From Eledone cirrhosa (Eukaryota), in contig OZ024745.1 of NCBI GenBank assembly GCA_964016885.1, positions 48,484,001 through 48,548,000 of the forward strand: a stretch of 64,000 bases of DNA. The letters are read 5' to 3'. Both the position numbers and the translations under genes were made by a program. The first letter of the stretch is position 1, and every line of letters starts with the position of its first letter. The notes under the pieces are model-generated. The model saw nothing but the letters and a program-made list of their open reading frames with translations. It made no database searches and was not told the origin of the DNA. This document shows positions 1 to 42,249 of the stretch, in pieces.

Positions 1-2272
1 TGATCTCTTTACAGTGTAGGCTGAGTGCTTTTTGTTGTGACTCCTACATGATCTCTTTACAATGTAGGCTGAGTACTTTTTGTTGTGACTCCTACATTAT
101 CTCTATACAGTGTAGGCTGAGTACTTTTTGTTGTGACTCCTACATTATCTCTATACAATGTAGGCTGAGTGCTTTTTGTTGTGACTCCTACATGATCTCT
201 TTACAGTGTAGGCTGAGTGCTTTTTGTTGTGACTCCTACATGATCTCTTTACAGTGTAGGCTGAGTGCTTTTTGTTGTGACTCCTACATCATCACTTTAC
301 AATGTAGGCTGAGTGCTTTTTGTTGTGACTCCTACATGATCTCTATACAGTGTAGGCTGAGTGCTTTTTGTTGTGACTCCTACATTATCTCTATACAGTG
401 TAGGCTGAGTGCTTTTTGTTGTGACTCCTACATGATCTCTTTACAGTGTAGGCTGAGTGCTTTTTGTTGTGACTCCTACATGACCTCTTTACAGTGTAGG
501 CTGAGTACTTTTTGTTGTGACTCCTACATGATCTCTATACAGTGTAGGCTGAGTGCTTTTTGTTGTGACTCCTACATTATCTCTATACAGTGTAGGCTGA
601 GTGCTTTTTGTTGTGACTCCTACATGATCTCTTTACAGTGTAGGCTGAGTGCTTTTTGTTGTGACTCCTACATGATCTCTTTACAATGTAGGCTGAGTAC
701 TTTTTGTTGTGACTCCTACATTATCTCTATACAGTGTAGGCTGAGTACTTTTTGTTGTGACTCCTACATTATCTCTATACAATGTAGGCTGAGTGCTTTT
801 TGTTGTGACTCCTACATGATCTCTTTACAGTGTAGGCTGAGTGCTTTTTGTTGTGACTCCTACATGATCTCTTTACAGTGTAGGCTGAGTGCTTTTTGTT
901 GTGACTCCTACATGATCTCTTTACAATGTAGGCTGAGTGCTTTTTGTTGTGACTCCTACATGATCTCTATACAGTGTAGGCTGAGTGCTTTTTGTTGTGA
1001 CTCCTACATGATCTCTTTACAGTGTAGGATGAGTGCTTTTTGTTGTGACTCCTACATTATCTCTTTACAGTGTAGGCTGAGTGCTTTTTGTTGTGACTCC
1101 TACATGATCACTTTACAGTGTAGGCTGAGTACTTTTTGTTGTGACTCCTACATGATCTCTATACAGTGTAGGCTGAGTGCTTTTTGTTGTGACTCCTACA
1201 TTATCTCTTTACAGTGTAGGCTGAGTGCTTTTTGTTGTGACTCCTACATGACCTCTTTACAGTGTAGGCTGAGTCCTTTTTGTTGTGACTCCTACATGAT
1301 CTCTTTACAGTGTAGGCTGAGTGCTTTTTGTTGTGACTCCTACATGATCTCTATACAGTGTAGGCTGAGTGCTTTTTGTTGTGACTCCTACATGATCTCT
1401 TTACAATGTAGGCTGGGTGCTTTTTGTTGTGACTCCTACATGATCACTTTACAGTGTAGGCTGAGTACTTTTTGTTGTGACTCCTACATGATCTCTTTAC
1501 AGTGTAGGCTGAGTACTTTTTGTTGTGACTCCTACATGATCACTTTACAGTGTAGGCTGAGTGCTTTTTGTTGTGACTCCTACATGATCTCTTTACAGTG
1601 TAGGCTGAGTGCTTTTTGTTGTGACTCCTACATGATCTCTTTACAATGTAGGCTGAGTGTTTTTTGTTGTGACTCCTACATGATCTCTTTACAATGTAGG
1701 CTGAGTGCTTTTTGTTGTGACTCCTACATGATCTCTTTACAATGTAGGCTGAGTGCTTTTTGTTGTGACTCCTACATGATCTCTTTACAATGTAGGCTGA
1801 GTGCTTTTTGTTGTGACTCCTACATTATCTCTTTACAATGTAGGCTGAGTGCTTTTTGTTGTGACTCCTACATGATCTCTTTACAATGTAGGCTGAGTGT
1901 TTTTTGTTGTGACTCCTACATGATCTCTTTACAATGTAGGCTGAGTGCTTTTTGTTGTGACTCCTACATGATCTCTTTACAATGTAGGCTGAGTGTTTTT
2001 TGTTGTGACTCCTACATGATCTCTTTACAATGTAGGCTGAGTGCTTTTTGTTGTGACTCCTACATGATCTCTTTACAATGTAGGCTGAGTGCTTTTTGTT
2101 GTGACTCCTACATGATCTCTTTACAATGTAGGCTGAGTGCTTTTTGTTGTGACTCCTACATGATCTCTTTACAATGTAGGCTGAGTGCTTTTTGTTGTGA
2201 CTCCTACATGATCACTTTACAGTGTAGGCTGAGTGCTTTTTGTTGTGACACCTACATGACCACTTTACAGTG
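1..2272. repeat. 48-bp tandem satellite (~47 copies visible, continues off the left edge)
   Basis: Unit TGATCTCTTTACAGTGTAGGCTGAGTGCTTTTTGTTGTGACTCCTACA repeats with few substitutions. The 754-aa ORF is a 16-aa translation of this unit. Confidence 0.98.
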
Positions 2273-12884: not shown

Positions 12885-13100
12885 CTCTTAACATCCTCTA
12901 TTGATTTAGCAGAAAATATCTAAAAACAGGTTTGTAAATTCAAATGTTTGTAGTATCTTTATTAGTGGACAGATACTTGTGAAAATTTGCAGTAAACTAA
13001 CATGCAGACTATTTTTTAATGTGATGCAATAATAGTGCTGTTTTATATTTTTCAACAACATTTTCTTAATGCCGTTTTATGTGGTACATGATGTTAAGAG
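12885..13100 (-). mobile_element. 216-bp MITE with 11-bp TIRs and degenerate TTAA flanks (piggyBac-like target site)
   Basis: TCAA|CTCTTAACATC...GATGTTAAGAG|TTTA. Its reverse complement aligns along its full length with one 47-bp satellite unit plus 34616-34789. Confidence 0.85.
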
Positions 13101-24590: not shown

Positions 24591-25969
24591 ACACATATGC
24601 GAAAAATAAATGGAAAACAACACAGCAAAGGATACAGTACAATGAAGATATATAGTAATTTATCACTTAGTCCTTCATCTAAAGATAAAAAGATAAATAA
24701 AAGATAAATAGAAAGATAGAGAGTGAGAAGAGGGAAAAAAATGTTTTGAGTAAAAAGCATGTGTGTGTTCAATTTGCCAATATATATATGTGTGTGTATG
24801 TGTCTGTGTGTGTGTCTGTGTGTGTGTATAAGCTGTGATTTGGTAGAGTCATTAGAATGTTGAGTAGAATCCTTTGCAGTATTCATTCTAGTTTTCTGCA
24901 CTCCGAATACAAATCCTGCTGAGGTCAACTTTCTCGGTTGATAAAAAGAGTACCTGTTATGTATTGGAGGTTGATTCTTCATCTATATTTCTTTCTCACT
25001 TCCTCTCTGTCACTCTTTCTCCTTCTCTAGAAGAAATTATCTGTGTTCAGACATGGAGAGGCGATAGGCTCCATTAGGTTTAAAATGCAGAACATCACTG
25101 TCAAATTTCACTACAGCATTCCTATGGCTCCCTGAGGAATTACAGGTACATTCATATATAAGTGTGTGTGTGTGTGTGTGTGTGTGGTTTCATGCATAGA
25201 ATTAATATATGCAGGGTGGGTCATAAGAATCGCTGGACAGATTTTACAGGCAAAACCAATCAGCAAGGGACCCAGGGGTAGACCCTAAGCAAGATGGTTG
25301 GATAACATCCATGAGCTTGGGTGGCTAAGCTTGGGGATCCAGCTGGATCAGTTGGAGACGGTTGCTTCTGGCAGAACCCACTGAAAGAAGTGTTTGAAGA
25401 CACTGCTCTCATGACCCTCCCAGGAATAAGTGGGCAAAGAAGAAGAAGGGTCATAATCAGCTTTCTACCATACTGATAAGAAAAATGAATAAAACCTACT
25501 TATTGGGTAATAAACTCATTAGCTGACCTTTGGATGTCTTTAGCAAAGTCCATAATGCTGCAAGCACTGGCCTGTCACTAAGCATTGGCCCTGGGCGAAT
25601 AGAGGGGGCAGGGTTGGGAGGCAGGTATTACCTTCTGAACATTCTTGGTGAGCTCTTTTTTGGAAGGAATATATTTTAGGACTTTTTTTTTACAATAAAC
25701 TTTATTTTCTAAATCTGAATGTGCACCATTGAAAAGTATAGGGGGTGATGTGGAGGGTGGTGGGGTGGTGGTAATATAGTAGTGCCATCCTGTGCTGTCT
25801 TTTGTTGCAAGATAACTAAATGCCCTGTTTTACTGCTTCCTCCCGTACCAACTTATCAGTTTTGGTTTTTCCCTCTTTCCTCCCATCAGTCCCACCAGAT
25901 TTTTACTACTGCTTTTAATCCTCTTGTTATGTTCTAAATAAATTATATTTGAATGTGTTGCATTAAATT

Positions 25970-28900
25970 AACTCTTCACATTCTCTACAACATGAAACTG
26001 TATTAGCAAGACGTTTAACTCTTAACATTCTCTACAACATGAAACTGTATTAGCAAGACATTCCACTTTTAACATTCTCTACCACATGAAACTGTATTAG
26101 CAAGACATTCAACTCTTAACATTCTCTACAACATGAAACTGTATTAGCAAGACATTCCACTCTTAACATTCTCTACCACATGAAACTGTATTAGCAAGAC
26201 ATTCAACTCTTAACATTCTCTACCATATGATACTGTATTAGCAAGACATTCAACTCTTAACATTCTCTATCACATGAAACTGTATTAGCAAGACATTCAA
26301 CTCTTAACATTCTCTACCACATGAAACTGTATTAACAAGATCTTCAACTCTTAACATTCTCTACCACATGAAACTGTATTAGCAAGACATTTAACTCTTA
26401 ACATTCTCTACCACATGAAACTGTATTTGCAAGACATTCAACTCTTAACATTCTCTACCACATGAAATTGTATTAGCAAGACATTCAACTCTTAACATTC
26501 TGTATCACATGAAACTGTATTAGCAAGACATTCAACTCTTAACATTCTCTATCACATGAAACTGTATTAGCAAGACATTCAACTCTTAACATTCTGTATC
26601 ACATGAAACTGTATTAGCAAGACATTCAACTCTTAACATTCTCTACCACATGAAACTGTATTATCAAGACATTCAACTCTTAACATTCTCTACCACAACC
26701 ACATGAAACTGTATTAGCAAGACATTCAACTTTTAACATTCTCTACCACATGAAACTGTATTAGCAAGACATTTAACTCTTAACATTCTCTACCACATGA
26801 AACTGTATTAGCAAGACATTCAACTCTTAACATTCTCTACCACATGAAACTGTATTAGCAAGACATTCAACTCTTAACATTCTCTATCACATGAAACTGT
26901 ATTAGCAAGACATTCAACTCTTAACATTCTCTATCACATGAAACTGTATTAGCAAGACATTCAACTCTTAACATTCTCTACCACATGATACTGTATTAGC
27001 AAGACATTTAACACTTAACATTCTCTACCACATGAAACTATATTAGCAAGACATTCAACTCTTAACATTCTCTACCACATGAAACTGTATTAACAAGATC
27101 TTCGACTCTTAACATTCTCTACCACATGAAACTGTATTAGCAAGACATTTAACTCTTAACATTCTCTACCGCATGACACTGTATTAGCAAGACATTCAAC
27201 TCTTAACATTCTCTACCACATGAAACTGTATTAGCAAGACATTCAACTCTTAACATTCTCTACCACATGATACTGTATTAGCAAGACATTTAACTCTTAA
27301 CATTCTCTACCACATTAAACTGTATTAGCAAGACATTCAACTCTTAACATTCTCTACCACATGAAACTGTATTAGCAAGACATTCCACACTTAACATTCT
27401 CTACCACATGAAACTGTATTAGCAAGACATTCAACTCTTAACATTCTCTACCACATGAAACTGTATTAACAAGATCTTCAACTGTTAACATTCTCTACCA
27501 CATGAAACTGTATTAGCAAGACATTCAACTCTTAACATTCTGTACCACATCAAACTGTATTAGCAAGACATTCAACTCTTAACATTCTCTACCACATGAA
27601 ACTGTATTAGCAAGATATTCAACTCTTAACATTCTCTACCACATGAAACTGTATTAGCAAGACATTCAACTCTTAACATTCTCTACCACATGAAACTGTA
27701 TTAACAAGATCTTCGACTCTTAACATTCTCTACCACATGAAACTGTATTAGCAAGACATTTAACTCTTAACATTCTCTGCCACATGACACTGTATTAGCA
27801 AGACATTCAACTCTTAACATTCTCTACCACATGAAACTGTATTAGCAAGACATTCAACTCTTAACATTCTCTACCACATGATACTGTATTAGCAAGACAT
27901 TTAACTCTTAACATTCTCTACCACATTAAACTGTATTAGCAAGACATTCAACACTTAACATTCTCTACCACATGAAACTGTATTAGCAAGACATTCAACA
28001 CTTAACATTCTCTACCACATGAAACTGTATTAGCAAGACATTCAACTCTTAACATTCTCTATCACATGAAACTGTATTAGCAAGACATTCAACTCTTAAT
28101 ATTCTCTATCACATGAAACTGTATTAGCAAGACATTCAACTCTTAACATTCTCTACCACATGAAACTGTATTAGCAAGACATTCAACGCTTAACATTCTC
28201 TACTACATGAAACTGTATTAGCAAGACATTTAACTCTTAACATTCTCTACCACATGAAACTGTATTAGCAAGACATTCAACTCATAAATTCTCTACCACA
28301 TGAAACTGTATTAGCAAGACATTCAACTCTTAACATTCTCTACCACATGAAACCCTATTAGCAAGACATTCAACTCTTAACATTCTCTACCACATGAAAC
28401 TGTATTAGCAAGACATTCAACTCTTAACATTCTCTACCACATGAAACTGTATTAGCAAGACATTCAACTCTTAACATTCTCTACCACATGAAACTGTATT
28501 AGCAAGAGATTCAACTCTTAACATTCTCTACCACATGAAACTGTATTAGCAAGACATTCAACTCTTAACATTCTCTACCACATGAAACTGTATTAGCAAG
28601 ACATTTAACTCTTAACATTCTCTACCACATGAAACTGTATTAGCAAGACATTCAACTCGTAAATTCTCTACCACATGAAACTGTATTAGCAAGACATTCA
28701 ACTCTTAACATTCTGTATCACATAAACTGTATTAGCAAGACATTCAACTCTTAACATTCTCTATCACATGAAACTGTATTATCAAGACATTCAACTCTTA
28801 ACATTCTCTACCACATGAAACTGTATTAGCAAGACATTCAACTCTTAACATTCTCTACAACATGAAACTGTATTAGCAAGACATTTAACTCTTAACATTC

Positions 28901-31900
28901 TCTACCACATGAAACTGTATTAGCAAGATATTCAACTCTTAACATTCTCTACCACATGAAACTGTATTAGCAAGTCATTCAACTCTTAACATGCTCTACC
29001 ACATGAAACTGTATTAGCAAGACATTTAACTCTTAACATTCTCTACCACATGAAACTGTATTAGCAAGACATTCAACTCTTAACATTCTCTACCACATGA
29101 AACTGTATTAGCAAGACATTCAACTCTTAACATTCTCTACCACATGAAACTGTATTAGCAAGACATTCAACTCTTAACATTCTTTATCACATGAAACTGT
29201 ATTAGGAAGACATTCAACTCTTAACATTCTCTACCACATGAAACTGTATTAGCAAGACATTCAACTCTTAACATTCTCTACCACATGAAACTGTATTAGC
29301 AAGACATTCAACTCTTAACATTCTCTACCACATGAAACTGTATTAGCAAGACATTCAACTCTTAACATTCTTTACCACATGAAACTCTATTAGCAAGACA
29401 TTCAACTCTTAACATTCTCTATCACATGAAACTGTATTAGCAAGACATTCAACTCTTAACATTCTCTACCACATGAAACTGTATTAGCAAGACATTCAAC
29501 TCTTAACATTCTCTACCACATGAAACTGCATTAGCAAGACATTCAACTCTTAACATTCTCTACCACACGAAACTGTATTAGGAAGACATTTAACGCTTAA
29601 CATTCTCTACCACATGAAACTGTATTAGCAAGACATTCAACTCTTAACATTCTCTACCACATGAAACTGTATTAGGAAGACATTCAACGCTTAACATTCT
29701 CTACCATATGAAACTGTATTAGCAAGACATTTAACTCTTAACATTCTCTACCACATGAAACTGTATTAGCAAGACATTCAACTCATAAATTCTCTACCAC
29801 ATGAAACTGTATTAGCAAGACATTTAACACTTAACATTCTCTACCACATGAAACTGTATTAGCAAGACATTTAACTCTTAACATTCTCTACCACATGAAA
29901 CTGTATTAGCAAGACATTTAACTCTTAACATTCTCTACCACATGAAACTGTATTAGCAAGACATTCAACTCTTAACATTCTCTACCACATGAAACTGTAT
30001 TAGCAAGACATTCAACTCTTAACATTCTCTACCACATGAAACTGTATTAGCAAGACATTCAACTCTTAACATTCTCTACCACACGAAACTGTATTAGGAA
30101 GACATTCAACGCTTAACATTCTCTACCACATGAAACTGTATTAGCAAGACATTCAACTCTTAACATTCTCTACCACATGAAACTGTATTAGGAAGACATT
30201 CAACGCTTAACATTCTCTACCACATGAAACTGTATTAGCAAGACATTTAACTCTTAACATTCTCTACCACATGAAACTGTATTAGCAAGACATTCAACTC
30301 ATAAATTCTCTACCACATGAAACTGTATTAGCAAGACATTTAACTCTTAACATTCTCTACCACATGAAACTGTATTAGCAAGACATTTAACTCTTAACAT
30401 GCTCTACCACATGAAACTGTATTAGCAAGACATTTAACTCTTAACATTCTCTACCACATGAAACTGTATTAGCAAGACATTCAACTCATAAATTCTCTAC
30501 CACATGAAACTGTATTAGCAAGACATTTAACTCTTAACATTCTCTACCACATGGAACTGTATTAGCAAGACATTTAACTCTTAACATTCTCTACCACATG
30601 GAACGGTATTAGCAAGACATTCAACTCTTAACATTCTCTACCACATGAAACTGTATTAGCAAGACATTCAACTCTTAACATTCTCTACCACATGAAACTG
30701 TATTAGCAAGACATTCAACTCTTAACATTCTCTACCACATGAAACTGTATTAGCAAGACATTTAACTCTTAACATTCTCTACCACATGAAACTGTATTAG
30801 CAAGACATTCAACTCTTAACATTCTCTACCACATGAAACTGTATTAGCAAGACATTCAACTCTTAACATTCTCTACCACATGAAACTGTATTAGCAAGAC
30901 ATTCAACTCTTAATATTCTCTACCACATGAAACTGTATTAGCAAGACATTTAACTCTTAACATTCTCTACCACATGAAACTGTATTAGCAAGACATTCAA
31001 CTCATAAATTCTCTACCACATGGAACTGTATTAGCAAGACATTCAACTCTTAACATTCTCTACCACATGAAACTGTATTAGCAAGACATTTAACTCTTAA
31101 CATTCTCTACCACATGAAACTGTATTAGCAAGACATTCAACTCTTAACATTCTCTACCACATGAAACTGTATTAGCAAGACATTCAACACTTAACATTCT
31201 CTACCACATGAAACTGTATTAGCAAGACATTCAACTCTTAACATTCTCTACCACATGAAACTGTATTAGCAAGACATTCAACTCTTAACATTCTCTACCA
31301 CACGAAACTGTATTAGCAAGACATTCAACTCTTAACATTCTCTACCACATGAAACTCTATTAGCAAGACATTTAACTCTTAACATTCTCTACCACATGAA
31401 ACTGTATTAGCAAGACATTTAACTCTTAACATTCTCTACCACATGAAACTGTATTAGCAAGACATTCAACTCTTAACATTCTCTACCACATGAAACTGTA
31501 TTAGCAAGACATTCAACTCTTAACATTCTCTACCACATGAAACTGCATTAGCAAGACATTCAACTCTTAACATTCTCTACCACATGAAACTGTATTAGCA
31601 AGACATTCAATTCTTAACATTCTCTACCACATGAAACTGTATTAGCAAGACATTCAACTCTTAACATTCTCTACCACATGAAACTGTATTAGCAAGACAT
31701 TCAACTCTTAACATTCTCTACCACACGAAACTGTATTAGGAAGACATTCAACGCTTAACATTCTCTACCACATGAAACTGTATTAGCAAGACATTCAACT
31801 CTTAACATTCTCTACCACATGAAACTGTATTAGGAAGACATTCAACGCTTAACATTCTCTACCACATGAAACTGTATTAGCAAGACATTTAACTCTTAAC

Positions 31901-34615
31901 ATTCTCTACCACATGAAACTGTATTAGCAAGACATTCAACTCATAAATTCTCTACCACATGAAACTGTATTAGCAAGACATTTAACTCTTAACATTCTCT
32001 ACCACATGAAACTGTATTAGCAAGACATTTAACTCTTAACATTCTCTACCACATGAAACTGTATTAGCAAGACATTTAACTCTTAACATTCTCTACCACA
32101 TGAAACTGTATTAGCAAGACATTCAACTCTTAACATTCTCTACCACATGAAACTGTATTAGCAAGATATTCAACTCTTAACATTCTCTACCACATGAAAC
32201 TGTATTAGCAAGACATTCAACTCTTAACATGCTCTACCACATGAAACTGTATTAGCAAGACATTCAACTCTTAACATTCTCTACCACATGAAACTGTATT
32301 AGCAAGACATTCAACTCTTAACATTCTCTACCACATGAAACTGTATTAGCAAGACATTTAACTCTTAACATTCTCTACCACATGAAACTGTATTAGCAAG
32401 ACATTCAACACTTAACATTCTCTACCACATGAAACTGTATTAGCAAGACATTCAACTCTTAACATTCTCTACCACATGAAACTGTATTAGCAAGACATTC
32501 AACTCTTAACATTCTCTACCACACGAAACTGTATTAGGAAGACATTCAACGCTTAACATTCTCTACCACATGAAACTGTATTAGCAAGACATTCAACTCT
32601 TAACATTCTCTACCACATGAAACTGTATTAGCAAGATATTCAACTCTTAACATTCTCTACCACATGAAACTGTATTAGCAAGACATTCAACTCTTAACAT
32701 GCTCTACCACATGAAACTGTATTAGCAAGACATTTAACTCTTAACATTCTCTATCACATGAAACTGTATTAGCAAGACATTCAACTCTTAACATTCTCTA
32801 CCACATGAAACTGTATTAGCAAGACATTCAACTCTTAACATTCTCTACCAATATGAAACTGTATTAGCAAGACATTCAACTCTTAACATTCTCTACCACA
32901 TGAAACTGTATTAACAAGACATTCAACTCTTAACATTCTCTACCACATGAAACTGTATTAGCAAGACATTTAACTCTTAACATTCTCTACCACATGAAAC
33001 CGTATTAGCAAGACATTCAACTCTTAACATTCTCTACCACATGAAACTGTATTAGCAAGACATTCAACTCTTAACATTCTCTACCACACGAAACTGTATT
33101 AGGAAGACATTCAACGCTTAACATTCTCTACCACATGAAACTGTATTAGCAAGACATTCAACTCTTAACATTCTCTACCACATGAAACTGTATTAGGAAG
33201 ACATTCAACGCTTAACATTCTCTACCACATGAAACTGTATTAGCAAGACATTTAACTCTTAACATTCTCTACCACATGAAACTGTATTAGCAAGACATTC
33301 AACTCATAAATTCTGTACCACATGAAACTGTATTAGCAAGACATTTAACTCTTAACATTCTCTACCACATGAAACTGTATTAGCAAGACATTTAACTCTT
33401 AACATTCTCTACCACATGAAACTGTATTAGCAAGACATTCAACTCTTAACATTCTCTACCACATGAAACTGTATTAGCAAGATATTCAACTCTTAACATT
33501 CTCTACCACATGAAACTGTATTAGCAAGACATTCAACTCTTAACATGCTCTACCACATGAAACTGTATTAGCAAGACATTTTACTCTTAACATTCTCTAC
33601 CACATGAAACTGTATTAGCAAGACATTCAACTCTTAACATTCTCTACCACATGAAACTGTATTAGCAAGACATTCAACTCTTAACATTCTCTACCACATG
33701 AAACTGTATTAGCAAGACATTCAACTCTTAACATTCTCTACCACATGAAACTGTATTAGCAAGACATTCAACTCTTAACATTCTCTACCACATGAAACTG
33801 TATTAGCAAGACATTTAACTCTTAACATTCTCTACCACATGAAACTGTATTAGCAAGACATTCAACTCTTAACATTCTCTACCACATGAAACTGTATTAG
33901 CAAGACATTCAACTCTTAACATTCTCTACCACATGAAACTGTATTAGCAAGACATTCAACTCTTAACATTCTCTACCACATGAAACTGTATTAGCAAGAC
34001 ATTCAACTCTTAACATTCTCTACCACATGAAACTGCATTAGCAAGACATTCAACTCTTAACATTCTCTACCACATGAAACTGTATTAGCAAGACATTCAA
34101 CTCTTAACATTCTCTACCACATGAAACTGTATTAGCAAGACATTCAACTCTTAACATTCTCTACCACATGAAACTGTATTAGCAAGACATTCAACTCTTA
34201 ACATTCTCTACCACATGAAACTGTATTAGCAAGACATTCAACTCTTAACATTCTCTACCACACGAAACTGTATTAGCAAGACATTCAACTCTTAACATTC
34301 TCTACCACATGAAACTGTATTAGCAAGACATTTAACTCTTAACATTCTCTACCACATGAAACTGTATTAGCAAGACATTTAACTCTTAACATTCTCTACC
34401 ACATGAAACTGTATTAGCAAGACATTCAACTCTTAACATTCTCTACCACATGAAACTGTATTAGCAAGACATTCAACTCTTAACATTCTCTACCACATGA
34501 AACTGTATTAGCAAGACATTCAACTCTTAACATTCTCTATCACATGAAACTGTATTAGCAAGACATTCAACTCTTAACATTCTCTACCACATGAAACTGT
34601 ATTAGCAAGACATTC
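25970..34615. repeat. 47-bp tandem satellite, ~184 copies, 8.6 kb
   Basis: Unit AACTCTTAACATTCTCTACCACATGAAACTGTATTAGCAAGACATTC is highly homogeneous, with recurring variant units. Confidence 0.99.
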
Positions 34616-34789
34616 ATGAAAAATACAAAACAACACTATGAATACATCACATTAAAAAATATGGTCTTTAATTTAGCTTTTTCGTGAATGTTCACAATGA
34701 TTTGTCCACTAGCAAAGATACTACAAACATTTGAATTAACCAACCAGTTTTTAGATATTTTCTCCAAAATCATTGCAGGATGTTAAAAG
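25972..34789 (+). mobile_element. TTAA-flanked MITE whose left 47 bp are tandemly amplified
   Basis: TTAA (25968-71)|CTCTTCACAT...[array]...unique 174-bp body...GATGTTAAAAG|TTAA (34790-93). Homologous to 12885-13100. Confidence 0.85.
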
Positions 34790-34851
34790 TTAAACAGACA
34801 TTCATACATCCAAGTGACATTGGTAATCTTTAGTTTCTCCTTTCTTTCAAC

Positions 34852-35120
34852 CAGAGTTGCTGAAACATGGAACAAACTAACTGCATCAATTGTTAGCAGT
34901 TGGGACACTGCATCCTTCAAAACGTCCATGCTTCCCAAAATTCGCCAACACTACACCTGATAATTTCCCCTCCATACACACGCACGCATGTATCCGTGTG
35001 TATATCATGACTCATACACTGTTCACTTTCCTGACATTTGTACCTTATTCTATGTACACCTTTGATGAGTTGAAGTGCACCTGAGTACAGTACAAAATAA
35101 TTTTCATTATTATCATTATT
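34852..35120 (+). mobile_element. Short CR1 3' fragment
   Basis: CAGAGTTGCTGAAACATGGAACAAAC...ACTACACCTGA, then the 3' UTR and ATT tail as at 53480-53750. Confidence 0.88.
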
Positions 35121-35127
35121 TAATTAA

Positions 35128-35322
35128 GGGCGGTGGATTGGAGGTATCGGGGGAGTGTCAGACACCATGCTTTGCAGCATAGAGTTACAGTCCTTTACGT
35201 TCTGAGTTCAAATCTCGCTGAGGTTAGCTTTGCCTTTCATACTTACGGGGTCGATAAAATAAAGCACCAGTAATGCACTGGGGTAATTGCTGGCCTTGTA
35301 CCAAAAGTAGAAACAATTATTA
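35128..35322 (+). mobile_element. tRNA-derived SINE, family 1
   Basis: Same family as 23386-23575. Confidence 0.85.
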
Positions 35323-36153
35323 TCAATATTTATACTAAGAATTAGAAAATATGAATAGTAATACTTATAAACATACATAAAAACACATATGTATATTATA
35401 TGGCATACTATAAATGTTAATGTCAACTGCATGTGTGCATGTGTGAGAGTGTGTGTGTGTGCGTGTGCGCATGTGTGTGTGTGTGTGTGTGTGTGCGCCC
35501 GCATACATGCAATGGTAGATTTCAACATTTATTTCATAATATGTGACACTATTACTATATTGATAATATTAATATAGTTTATAATGATAATAAAGATGCT
35601 GATGATGGTTTAAATTAAGGCTGTTCCTTTGATATTAATGGGATGACTAATTTTAATCTAGTAACCTTTGCTTCTGGCAACCTGCATATTATAGAAATAA
35701 TAGGCAGGTTACCAGTATTTGGCAAGATCTACCTTTAATCAAAATGTAGCAGGTGTAAGAATAGTAAATATTTTGATAGTTTGGATGATTTTTGTGATAT
35801 TAATCAAAGGTCTGTGAAAGTAGTGCTAATGTTTTTTCAAAGAGACTATAAAACAGAGTAATAAACCAAATTTACACAACTTGACTGCTTCTTCTTCTTC
35901 TCTGCCAGTAGAATTTAGCCCTGCAGCTTCCCATCCCATAAAAAGCCCCAACTGTATTTCTTTTAACTAAAGAGAGCAAGGGAGAGAGAAAGTTCTTCAA
36001 CCAATAGTCAGTATATCTCCCTGTTGCTGCTGCTAGCAGCCACTGGTTTTAACAACCCAGCCTAGGAACATAGAAATTAGCTTACACAGAGATGAAGGAA
36101 AAACATATATAATTATATAAATATAAACATAAAGATATATATATATATATAAA

Positions 36154-36186
<33 letters not shown>

Positions 36187-36381
36187 AATACACATATACA
36201 TATATCATTGTGTGAAAAAGTGTTATTTTCAGATTATATCACTGAAAATACTTTTTTTCATATAGATTCATTCAGAATATAAAAGCAAAATCTTATGTCA
36301 AAAGATATACACATACACACACACATATAAATAGATATTTATTTTAATTACATCTTTAAAAAACCCAGTTAAACTTCAAAA

Positions 36382-36658
36382 ATGAAATTAAAAGAAAATA
36401 TACTTATAATTTTAGTATTTCTTAACTTTTTCCTACTAATGAGAGATGGAAAATGTAGTAGTGAAGAGACTAATGACCAATTCAGTGGAGAAATACCCCT
36501 TGGAGCTGCCACCTTGGCATTTGTGTTTGATAATACTGGTTCTATGATGGATGACCTTAGGCAGGTAATTGAAGGAGCAGCAAAAATATTAGCCACAACT
36601 CTTGATCGGGGAGAGAAACTTTTGTACAACTACGTCCTGGTACCTTTTCAAGATCCAA
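36382..36658 (+). CDS. HMCN1: Hemicentin-like gene, first coding exon (signal peptide plus N-terminal VWA domain); later exons not identified in this window
   Basis: [19 protein letters not shown] (hydrophobic leader)...[34 protein letters not shown]...[12 protein letters not shown] matches the hemicentin N-terminus (TLAFVFDxTGSMxDDLxQVxEGA...LVPFxDP). ATG context is AAAAATGA. The phase-1 donor GTAAGT at 36659 is where I recall the first intron of vertebrate HMCN1. Confidence 0.92.
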
Positions 36659-37258
36659 GTAAGTGACACTTTATAATTTCATCTTTGGTCAGTTTTATTT
36701 TGCCTCTCTTTCAACCATTCTATTAATTAGAAAATATAAATATATCTACTTTCTTATATATACACAAACACATATGCTGACACTAAAACAGATATGTATT
36801 TATGTATACATGCATATACCTAGACACACAAGCATATACACACAAACACACACACACACACATATGCATACAATCAAACACATGCATTCACTCAAATACA
36901 TATGTGTATATGCATACACCCAAATGCATATGTACACACCCAAACACACATTTATACACCCAAACACATGCATGCACACACATTCACTCATATATAAAAA
37001 TATACACCTAAACACAGGCATACACATACACACACATATATATGTATAAACCCAAACACATATGCATACAATCAAGCACATATGCATACATCCAGAAACA
37101 CATGCCTACACCCAAACATGTGCATACAAAGACACACTCATATATACCTGTCTGTGTCCATATAACATTTCATTAATGAATAAAGACCTTTTTAAAATAT
37201 ATTTTAAATGAGAAGTTATTTATAGAAATAGAGTTTGTAGATCTAAAGATGTTGGACA

Positions 37259-37911
37259 CAGTGCCGGATTTAATTATAAGTTAAACCAGTCATATCCTAG
37301 GGTCTCATAATCCACAGCAGCCTCTAAATAATTAATAGGTGTATATGTTTTCAAATTTTGTGAGGTCTTCTGGTGTAATATTCTTACAAACGATCCCCAA
37401 GCTTTACAAAGCTGTGGTCCTTACCATCTAGAGGGGCCTCAGAATAATTAAAAGGTGTATATGTTATCAATTTTGTGAGACCTTCTGGTTTGATATTTTT
37501 ACAAAAGATCCCAGGCTTTATATTGCTGTGGTCCTTACTATGTGAAGGGGCCTCTAAATAATTAAAAGGTGTATATGTTATCAATTTTGTGAGACCTTCT
37601 GGTTTGATATTTTTACAAAAGATCCCAGGCTTTATATTGCTGTGGTCCTTACTATGTGAAGAGGCCTCTAAATAATTAAAAGGTGTATATGTTGTCAATG
37701 TTTGTGAGACCTTCTAGTATAATTTTTTTACATGGGATCACCCCAATCTTTAGATAGCTGAGGGTCTCCCCATCTGAAGGGGCTTCAAAATAATTAAAGG
37801 CCATATATGTTTTCAATTTTTGTGAAACCTCCCAGTGTAATTTTTTTACAAGGGACTCCCAAGCTTTGAATAGATAAGAATCTCAACTATCTCGATTAGG
37901 ATCCAGCACTG
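37259..37911. mobile_element. MITE-like element (possibly hAT) filled with ~5 copies of a ~114-bp repeat
   Basis: Termini CAGTGCCGGAT...ATCCAGCACTG. The 8-bp flanks GTTGGACA/TTTGAACT are 5/8 identical. AGGTGTATATGTT recurs at 37337, 37453, 37567 and 37681. Confidence 0.65.
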
Positions 37912-38149
37912 TTTGAACTCGTCTACATCTAGATAACTCAAAGTAATGACCATATAATTAACCACCACCACTGTCACAACAACAACAACTACAATAACAA
38001 CAACAATATCAATAACAAGTGATATCCAAATATATTACAATAACAAGTGATATCCAAATATATTACAATAACAAGTGATTTTACCATAACACTACTTGCT
38101 GGTCATCAAAGGTCCACTTTCAATTAAAACTGTCTCAATGTACCTTTAG

Positions 38150-39876: not shown

Positions 39877-40003
39877 TTAAACTTCAAAAATGAAAATATA
39901 TGAAAATATATGAAAATATACTAAAATAATTTAGTATTTCTTAACTCTTTCCTATTAATGAGAGATGGGTGTTATAGTGAAGTCACTGATGACAAATTCA
40001 GTG
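39877..40003 (+). pseudogene. Degenerate duplicate of the hemicentin start-codon/signal-peptide segment
   Basis: Aligns to 36369-36487 (TTAAACTTCAAAAATGAAA...TTTAGTATTTCTTAACT.TTTCCTA.TAATGAGAGATGG...TGAC.AATTCAGTG). All three ATGs at its start hit stops within 10 codons. Confidence 0.85.
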
Positions 40004-40665: not shown

Positions 40666-40815
40666 GCATGTATGTATATTTTGGAGTTGTACTTGTTTGG
40701 CAAATGACTTGATCTAAGACTTCACCTTGGAAGGGTCATTTTACCCATTTAAGAAGATACAGAAACTATTGCATTCACATTTCATTTATTTCTCAATAAC
40801 AGAACCATGAAAACA

Positions 40816-42249
40816 CCTTCATACAAATCTATTACACCTCATTCAATATGACCTGACCTTCATACAAATCTATTACACCTCATTCAGTATGACCTGACCT
40901 TCATACAAATCTATTACACCTCATTCAATATGACCTGACCTTCATACAAATCTATTACACCTCATTCAGTATGACCTGACCTTCATACAAATCTATTACA
41001 CCTCATTCAATATGACCTGACCTTCATACAAATCTATTACACCCCATTCAATATGACCTGACCTTCATACAAATCTATTACACCTCATTCAATATGACCT
41101 GACCTTCATACAAATCTATTACACCTCATTCAATATGACCTGACCTTCATACAAATCTATTACACCTCATTCAGTATGACCTGACCTTCATACAAATCTA
41201 TTACACCTCATTCAATATGACCTGACCTTCATACAAATCTATTACACCTCATTCAGTATGACCTGACCTTCATACAAATCTATTACACCCCATTCAATAT
41301 GACCTGACCTTCATACAAATCTATTACACCTCATTCAATATGACCTGACCTTCATACAAATCTATTACACCTCATTCAGTATGACCTGACCTTCATACAA
41401 ATCTATTACACCTCATTCAGTATGACCTGACCTTCATACAAATCTATTACACCTCATTCAGTATGACCTGACCTTCATACAAATCTATTACACCTCATTC
41501 AATATGACCTGACCTTCATACAAATCTATTACACCTCATTCAGTATGACCTGACCTTCATACAAATCTATTACACCTCATTCAATATGACCTGACCTTCA
41601 TACAAATCTATTACACCTCATTCAGTATGACCTGACCTTCATACAAATCTATTACACCTCATTCAATATGACCTGACCTTCATACAAATCTATTACACCT
41701 CATTCAATATTACCTGACCTTCATACAAATCTATTACACCTCATTCAATATGACCTGACCTTCATACAAATCTATTACACCTCATTCAATATGACCTGAC
41801 CTTCATACAAATCTATTACACCTCATTCAATATGACCTGACCTTCATACAAATCTATTACACCTCATTCAATATGACCTGACCTTCATACAAATCTATTA
41901 CACCTCATTCAATATGACCTGACCTTCATACAAATCTATTACACCTCATTCAATATGACCTGACCTTCATACAAATCTATTACACCTCATTCAGTATGAC
42001 CTGACCTTCATACAAATCTATTACACCTCATTCAATATGACCTGACCTTCATACAAATCTATTACACCTCATTCAGTATGACCTGACCTTCATACAAATC
42101 TATTACACCTCATTCAATATTACCTGACCTTCATACAAATCTATTACACCTCATTCAATATTACCTGACCTTCATACAAATCTATTACACCTCATTCAAT
42201 ATGACCTGACCTTCATACAAATCTATTACACCTCATTCAATATGACCTG
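40816..42249. repeat. 41-bp tandem satellite, ~35 copies
   Basis: Unit CCTTCATACAAATCTATTACACCTCATTCA(A/G)TATGACCTGA is almost invariant. Confidence 0.98.

Follow-up and report, generated by a model that had tools for sequence, protein, structure and literature searches.

The DNA analysed here, termed the window, comprises 64,000 nucleotides of Eledone cirrhosa (contig OZ024745.1 of assembly GCA_964016885.1, positions 48,484,001 to 48,548,000 of the forward strand) and carries a long tandem array upstream of a hemicentin gene. Sequence comparison confirmed that positions 25972-34789 are one copy of a 218-bp, TTAA-flanked MITE (miniature inverted-repeat transposable element) of the piggyBac type, in which the first 47 bp are present 184 times. 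It is highly probable that a single old insertion of this MITE was the starting point, and that the 47 bp were expanded in place by slippage and unequal exchange of the host long after transposition had ceased. The features concerned are the following.

25968-25971, plus strand: left TTAA target-site duplication, read from the sequence; family copies also show TTAA at the left flank
25972-34617, plus strand: 184 head-to-tail copies of MITE positions 1-47; the last unit (34571-34617) continues into the MITE body
34618-34789, plus strand: unamplified MITE body, positions 48-218, with the right terminal inverted repeat (TIR) at its end; 14% from the family consensus
34790-34793, plus strand: right TTAA target-site duplication, read from the sequence
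12885-13100, minus strand: 216-bp member of the MITE family with one unit; not the ancestor but a relative; flanks decayed
36382-36660, plus strand: first coding exon of hemicentin; hydrophobic leader and start of a von Willebrand factor A (VWA) domain, GT donor after 36660; PF25106 match with E 1.9e-12

Using Tandem Repeats Finder, 25970-34616 was found to be an array with a period of 47 bp, 184.0 copies and 95% matches. At the left end, TTAA (25968-25971) is followed by CTCTTCACAT. After the last unit come 172 unique bases, which close in an inverted copy of the unit start (GATGTTAAAAG) followed by TTAA (34790-34793). The whole element comprises 8,818 bp (25972-34789), and its array unit corresponds to MITE positions 1-47, the left TIR plus 31 bp. 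A preliminary description of this DNA had proposed about 184 units and a TTAA duplication with inverted terminal repeats bracketing the whole 8.8 kb; both ends and the copy number agreed with it. Chance ends were excluded, because many family loci carry TTAA-CTCTTAA ends. An assembly artefact was excluded as well, because short-read contigs of one sample (X4-X6, possibly the source of the assembly itself and hence not independent of the individual) bridged the left junction and differed there at 3 of 303 bases, and both types of unit junction were deeply covered. In X4 a depth of 785 was observed for the TCAA junction, 300 for the TTAA junction and 6-11 for the unique flank, and the junction ratio of 3:1 matched the assembly. 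With 184 units in 8.6 kb the array is long and head-to-tail as in satellites, its size falling between the minisatellite and satellite classes outlined in PMC6947457. Presence at several loci, the other satellite feature, was not found for the 47-bp repeat but was found for a sister repeat of 85 bp.

The MITE family was characterized in the whole genome (3.0 Gb, 1,796 contigs). Its consensus, derived from 29 copies, is 218 bp long, with a 16-bp TIR starting CTCTTAA and with TTAA outside both ends. The left end of this consensus contains the 47-mer and the host copy is colinear with the 29 genome copies, in agreement with the MITE origin of the unit suggested previously. The family is short, TIR-bounded and non-coding, coding capacity being judged by length alone. 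Searching with the unique tail yielded 2,904 candidates; 40 were scored, and all but the query itself were 80-84% identical. The 29 copies of the consensus were taken from these 40. A 20-mer from the body had 2,157 exact genome matches (control 0) and was present exactly in 6 of 28 copies chosen independently of it, and from these two values roughly 10,000 copies were estimated. The family is thus of high copy number and dispersed, as expected for a MITE. A tree of 97 near-full-length copies was star-like. The closest pair was 9.7% apart, distances to the majority ranged from 7 to 29% (median 13%) and no young copies were found among the 97; the family looks long dead.

Among full-length matches, some of them located inside composites, TTAA was observed at the left end in 29 of 47 and at the right end in 27 of 47. 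For one copy (L011) the joined flanks matched five paralogous repeats with a single TTAA at the site, which shows that the target-site duplication is genuine in this one case. Non-autonomous Helitron and Helentron elements are not known to make a 4-bp duplication; their inverted repeats are subterminal instead of terminal, and they carry central repeats. They were rejected, as the element analysed here has terminal inverted repeats and a TTAA duplication, with the tandem repeats at its end. The TTAA duplication together with a 16-bp TIR starting with C corresponds to piggyBac, for which TIRs of 12-19 bp starting with C are described (PMC5381638). Kolobok elements and T2-MITEs share the TTAA target and are described with an RR (AG) terminus (PMC6004289); the termini found here start with CT. 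Of the two assignments considered earlier, piggyBac was therefore retained and Kolobok discarded, and a piggyBac parentage is suggested by the sequence of the ends. Among 125 PF13843 transposase matches in the genome, 50 loci were read. Their ends were of the CCCTTTAG or CCCTTTCG type, several had no detected TIR pair, and in none of the 50 was a cognate transposase with the TIR of the MITE family found.

Further observations were made on piggyBac elements. Autonomous elements of other families were found inside copies of this MITE (L176 at G000:C3:199.28 Mb, and L172); the insertion in L176 is at a TTAA within the MITE and shows a clean duplication. Several copies of about 2.57 kb (L163-L171) with open frames of 500-561 amino acids and near-identical ends probably represent a recently active family. 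The best PF13843 match (L162, G000:C2:234.41 Mb) has an open frame of 597 amino acids and no TIR pair found within 1.5 kb, and is a candidate domesticated piggyBac gene.

The second copy, 12885-13100, was the sole full-length match outside the array within the window. Its reverse complement aligned significantly with the last unit and tail (222 columns, 79.7% identity, E 1.6e-51), as had been predicted. It carries CTCTTAACATC at both ends, flanked by TAAA and TTGA instead of TTAA. The same alignment had led to its designation as the ancestor type, which did not hold: the copy ranked 17th of 40 scored tail matches and 30th of 96 for shared variants, differed by 13.4% from the family consensus and by 19.4% from the host copy, and was not the sister of the host copy in the 97-copy tree. 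It represents the one-unit form of the family, which thousands of other copies show too. A second copy in 64 kb is unremarkable, because about 10,000 copies exist in the genome; at about one copy per 300 kb the chance is roughly one in six.

A pattern spanning the 47-bp unit junction had 134 matches in the genome, all 134 inside this array, and a four-unit query (360 candidates, 40 scored) detected no other array with a 47-bp period. From the restriction of the junction to this locus we conclude that growth took place in situ and that the array has stayed where it arose. Alleles seldom seen in the family occur both in the array majority and in the last unit (position 11 T in 14 of 91 copies, position 14 C in 9 of 98, position 46 A in 4 of 109), so the expansion started from this copy after its divergence. 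Both results support the earlier proposal that the first 47 bp, including the left TIR, were amplified in situ. Mobilised pieces of the satellite with their own TTAA, the occurrence of which had been considered, were found neither with the genome-wide junction pattern nor with the four-unit query.

The host copy differs from the family consensus by 14.2% (Jukes-Cantor, JC, distance 0.158). The units differ by 2.0% from the array majority and by 3.7% pairwise, with 16 variants private to one unit; the expansion is consequently much younger than the insertion. On a scale borrowed from Octopus vulgaris, where JC 0.09 is equated with 25 million years (PMC13282606), the insertion would date to about 40 million years and the expansion to a few million years or less, values to be read as orders of magnitude. 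Divergence was higher in the left quarter of the array, at 1.45 differences per unit, than in the right (0.64). Patterns of variants recurred at lags of 13, 29 and 35 units, as expected from block duplication. The 4-mers preceding the 183 anchored units were TCAA (135), TTAA (42, one of them the true left end) and others (6). The internal positions 44-47 of the element read TCAT and the flank reads TTAA, so that both junction types may be derived by crossover within one shared base, with no new mutation needed.

The preliminary description had also regarded the array as a series of potential transposase-binding ends, with a subset of units regenerating TTAA plus TIR. TTAA indeed precedes 42 of the 183 units; the intact family TIR follows in none of them. 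Compared with the 16-bp TIR, a typical unit has other bases at positions 11 and 14, and TTAA followed by a TIR with two mismatches was observed in 36 units. With 0 intact TIRs, no matching transposase at the 50 loci read and no 47-bp piece moved, the idea of an array of functional ends is not supported. The array is inert as a transposon.

Other arrays derived from the same family were detected with periods of 26, 33, 42, 45, 48, 51, 85 and 114 bp, the longest extending over 28.5 kb. Besides the 85-bp type, the left-end arrays retrieved with the four-unit query, starting from its 40 scored candidates, comprised 26 bp x58, 33 bp x16, 48 bp x9.5, 51 bp x5.5, 42 bp x3 and 45 bp x2. The 85-bp unit extends from the left end to an internal TTAA, and 806 of 875 junctions in the examined loci read TTAA. 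It was present at more than 20 fetched loci with 2 to hundreds of units, several of them with TTAA at both outer ends. Arrays included 35 units on contig C22, 125 units on C28 (10.6 kb, including the TTAA left end together with body and right end) and 336 units on C28 (28.5 kb, without element ends); the C28 arrays share variants that C22 lacks. As these loci were picked by similarity, their ages are biased. The exact 85-bp junction had 543 genome matches, a number inflated by the long arrays, on at least eight contigs among the first 100 matches listed. The 114-bp repeat, which derives from the right end, had 47 exact junction matches at 40 loci on 15 contigs, reading ATAA in 40 and TTAA in 7 cases; its units diverged by 0.147 within and 0.168 between loci. 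Partial tandem duplications were observed in 15 of 57 consecutive loci on C1, none with more than four units. These loci were picked by the body 20-mer and classed by eye, three stretches of clustered matches and one locus already retrieved being left out, and duplicated right halves are over-sampled. At five or more loci (L256, L264, L265, L231, L010) a composite occurred in which two right halves are separated by a common 45-bp spacer. Because the same junctions are found at many unlinked loci, it is suggested that composites moved as entire units during the active period of the family. Two explanations for the duplicated ends were rejected. Nested self-insertion would leave partner junctions, which were found 0 and 1 times versus 47 and 543 for the common ones, and a TTAA-to-TTAA joining of both common junctions is incompatible with the right-end repeat, which is mostly ATAA.

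Several individual loci of these arrays are recorded here. On C28, 85-bp arrays at 95.35-95.36 Mb (L062/L081) and 99.40-99.43 Mb (L063/L064/L088/L092) lie 4 Mb apart in opposite orientation and have the same majority unit. The 28.5-kb array begins and ends mid-unit, without element ends or a clear target duplication, and therefore spread without transposase. Many more arrays are located at 93-106 Mb of C28. A stretch of left-end repeats spaced at 76 bp covers at least 19 kb (G000:C5:1640107-1659208) and was seen only through matches of the 85-bp junction pattern, and a left-end array with a longer two-part unit, followed by the body and one right-end duplicate, was found at L132:1296-2774.

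Downstream of the array, the peptide of the hemicentin exon (36382-36660) is 62-80% identical to named hemicentin-1 proteins and the exon is single copy in the genome. Its ATG at 36382 lies 1.59 kb from the right TTAA and 1.77 kb from the last unit, in accordance with the roughly 1.8 kb stated before, and the PF25106 match and protein identity bear out the gene assignment. The peptide had no match in PDB and only generic VWA matches below 0.9 in the ESM Atlas. Tandem arrays are common around the locus: the surrounding 104 kb contain seven arrays of at least 500 bp with a period of at least 20, one of them of 19 kb, and the two C28 regions contain several further long arrays. Tandem expansion thus appears routine in this genome, and no particular cause has to be invoked for the involvement of a MITE copy.

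Three further repeats were noted in the vicinity. A decayed partial duplicate of the 5' part of hemicentin exon 1 (39877-40003, 79% over 130 columns) lies about 3.5 kb downstream in the first intron. Also in intron 1, a 114-bp tandem repeat of 4.7 copies between short inverted ends (CAGTG...CACTG; 37258-37912) has the appearance of another MITE, unrelated to the first and with repeats inside it. The 48-bp array of about 404 copies (19 kb) at window positions 1-2272 and L099/L100 has a unit 69-78% similar to a dispersed repeat at many places in the window, and probably grew from this interspersed repeat.

How did the array arise? The observed structure, with family positions 1-47 as unit, the rest of the element once and TTAA at the outer ends, is best explained by a sequence of events in which a piggyBac-type transposase would have inserted the MITE during an old burst. 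The left end may then have been joined to internal positions 44-47 (TCAT) by one duplication, and the resulting junction (TCAA or TTAA) would combine internal letters with the TTAA flank as a mosaic; duplication of multi-unit blocks would have enlarged the array. Elsewhere, end-duplicated versions of the family apparently spread while it was active and seeded long arrays. Several points weigh against expansion in place by the host. No empty site was found for the window locus, with no spanning match within the 1.1 Mb of genome DNA searched, and without an empty site or ortholog growth in situ rests on uniqueness and shared variants. Reads of other organisms (runs X1-X3) gave no coverage of the unique flank, with depth 0 at 34804-34832 and, in X1, over 25789-25992, which is not to be taken as absence of the locus. 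Homogenisation would erase the age of the first duplication, which could reach back to the active period. The microhomology at the 47-bp junction is only 1 bp, and the slippage model as outlined in PMC6947457 expects 5-10 bp. Finally, a cognate autonomous element was not found at the 50 of 125 PF13843 loci read, leaving the piggyBac assignment to the ends alone. One alternative, which we regard as rather improbable, ascribes the first duplication to the transposase. In this view the left end, cut together with its TTAA, would have attacked an internal site of the sister copy (single-ended transfer), and the host would only have expanded the product. The commonest left-end satellite is joined exactly at an internal TTAA (the 85-bp unit, 806 of 875 junctions), a 48-bp duplication at C5:80.4 Mb is joined at an internal TTAA too, and an autonomous piggyBac element sits in an internal TTAA of copy L176. 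The right-end duplicates, with divergence within loci close to that between loci (0.147 and 0.168), date to the active period, and 41 internal junctions of the 47-bp array, including the first one, read TTAA. However, the internal site used in the 47-bp array is TCAT, and TCAA prevails among its junctions. For the 114-bp repeat, ATAA was read at the junction in 40 of 47 cases, which points to one inherited master rather than to repeated TTAA targeting, and the partner junctions of a nested insertion were practically absent (0 and 1). Arrays of 26, 33, 42, 45 and 51 bp lack such a junction or include flank, and microhomology at TTAA would favour plain recombination too.

The remaining explanations are far less probable. 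Present or former mobility of the 8.8-kb element or of TTAA-plus-TIR pieces, with the array providing multiple transposase ends, is very unlikely and largely refuted. TTAA is intact at both outer ends, 41 internal junctions offer TTAA as well, composites with duplicated ends are dispersed in the family, and piggyBac excision does not need flanking TTAA (PMC7351741); yet all 134 junction matches lie in this array, no unit has an intact TIR, none of the 97 copies is young and the family TIR was seen at 0 of 50 transposase loci read. The idea that the satellite predates the MITE, which would have arisen around it or captured it as in the miDNA4 model, has a known precedent in the account of PMC12628747. 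The 47-mer, however, contains the TIR, is single at the left end of one-unit copies genome-wide and is tandem nowhere else in the genome; the single-unit structure of the family rules this model out, and we give it practically no credence. Maintenance of the array for an effect on hemicentin expression is very unlikely, and such an effect is unsupported: the gene is single-copy and its first coding exon lies 1.6-1.8 kb downstream of the array, but long arrays occur about every 15 kb here, also in the first intron (37320-37867, 40815-42249), and no Rfam match was found in 34400-36700. Host-driven expansion of one old MITE copy in place accordingly remains the preferred explanation.

MITE-derived tandem repeats are well documented, and the present evidence calls for no new mechanism. 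In Xenopus, Xmix (T2-A1 MITE) and Xstir are likewise described as a TTAA-targeting MITE occurring as single element, element plus array and free array, with a piece of the MITE as array unit (PMC6004289, PMC12628747, PMC9659126). Xmix is of Kolobok type (AGGRR ends) and its amplified piece is described as internal, whereas the element analysed here has ends starting with C, its unit contains the left TIR and its 47-bp array is confined to one locus. For miDNA4, a Tc1/mariner MITE of Xenopus tropicalis, a monomer or an array of variable length inside the MITE is reported, and its arrays can lose the element ends, as did the 28.5-kb array of the 85-bp unit (PMC12628747). The miDNA4 repeat is thought to be captured, while here the repeat was cut from the element's own end in several independent unit lengths. 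Tetris TIR-220 of Drosophila virilis is likewise a non-autonomous DNA transposon with terminal repeats expanded to kb arrays inside the element; it is described as a foldback element with TIRs already containing tandem repeats (PMC4079207), whereas the ancestral element here has one copy. The molluscan MITE DTC84 of Donax trunculus also has a variable number of tandem units and spread as a composite, but with core repeats in the centre, up to five copies and an AA target site (PMC3879986) instead of terminal repeats, up to hundreds of copies and TTAA. Minisatellites derived from Alu and B1 are also single-locus and grown from part of one dead interspersed copy (PMC6947457), and they are probably the closest mechanistic match for the 47-bp array. 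They differ in their retroelement hosts and in internal direct repeats of 5-10 bp, compared to 1 bp of microhomology here. Terminal repeats have already been noted as favoured sources of tandem repeats (PMC9659126). A literature search at the level of result listings found no description of this MITE; the repeat library of PMC13282606 may hold the family.

The locus is a clean case of satellite formation from a transposon, in which the two ends of the element, its target duplication and its parent family can still be read around 184 units. In the 218-bp family all stages are present, beginning with one duplicated end, continuing with dispersed composites and ending with free arrays that measure tens of kb, in at least nine unit lengths. 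It offers a natural series in which to study from which transposon part a satellite develops, and whether the initial duplication is the work of the transposase. In the widest interpretation, which we consider unlikely, the family would act as a satellite factory with its own transposase as the driving force: after cleavage, ends would be joined to internal TTAA sites in sister copies, giving 85-bp left and 114-bp right composites that were mobilised whole and seeded arrays of up to 28.5 kb, with the 47-bp array as one such event at a non-canonical site. If this were true, a dozen datable satellite births would be available in one genome, and their first step would be directly testable.

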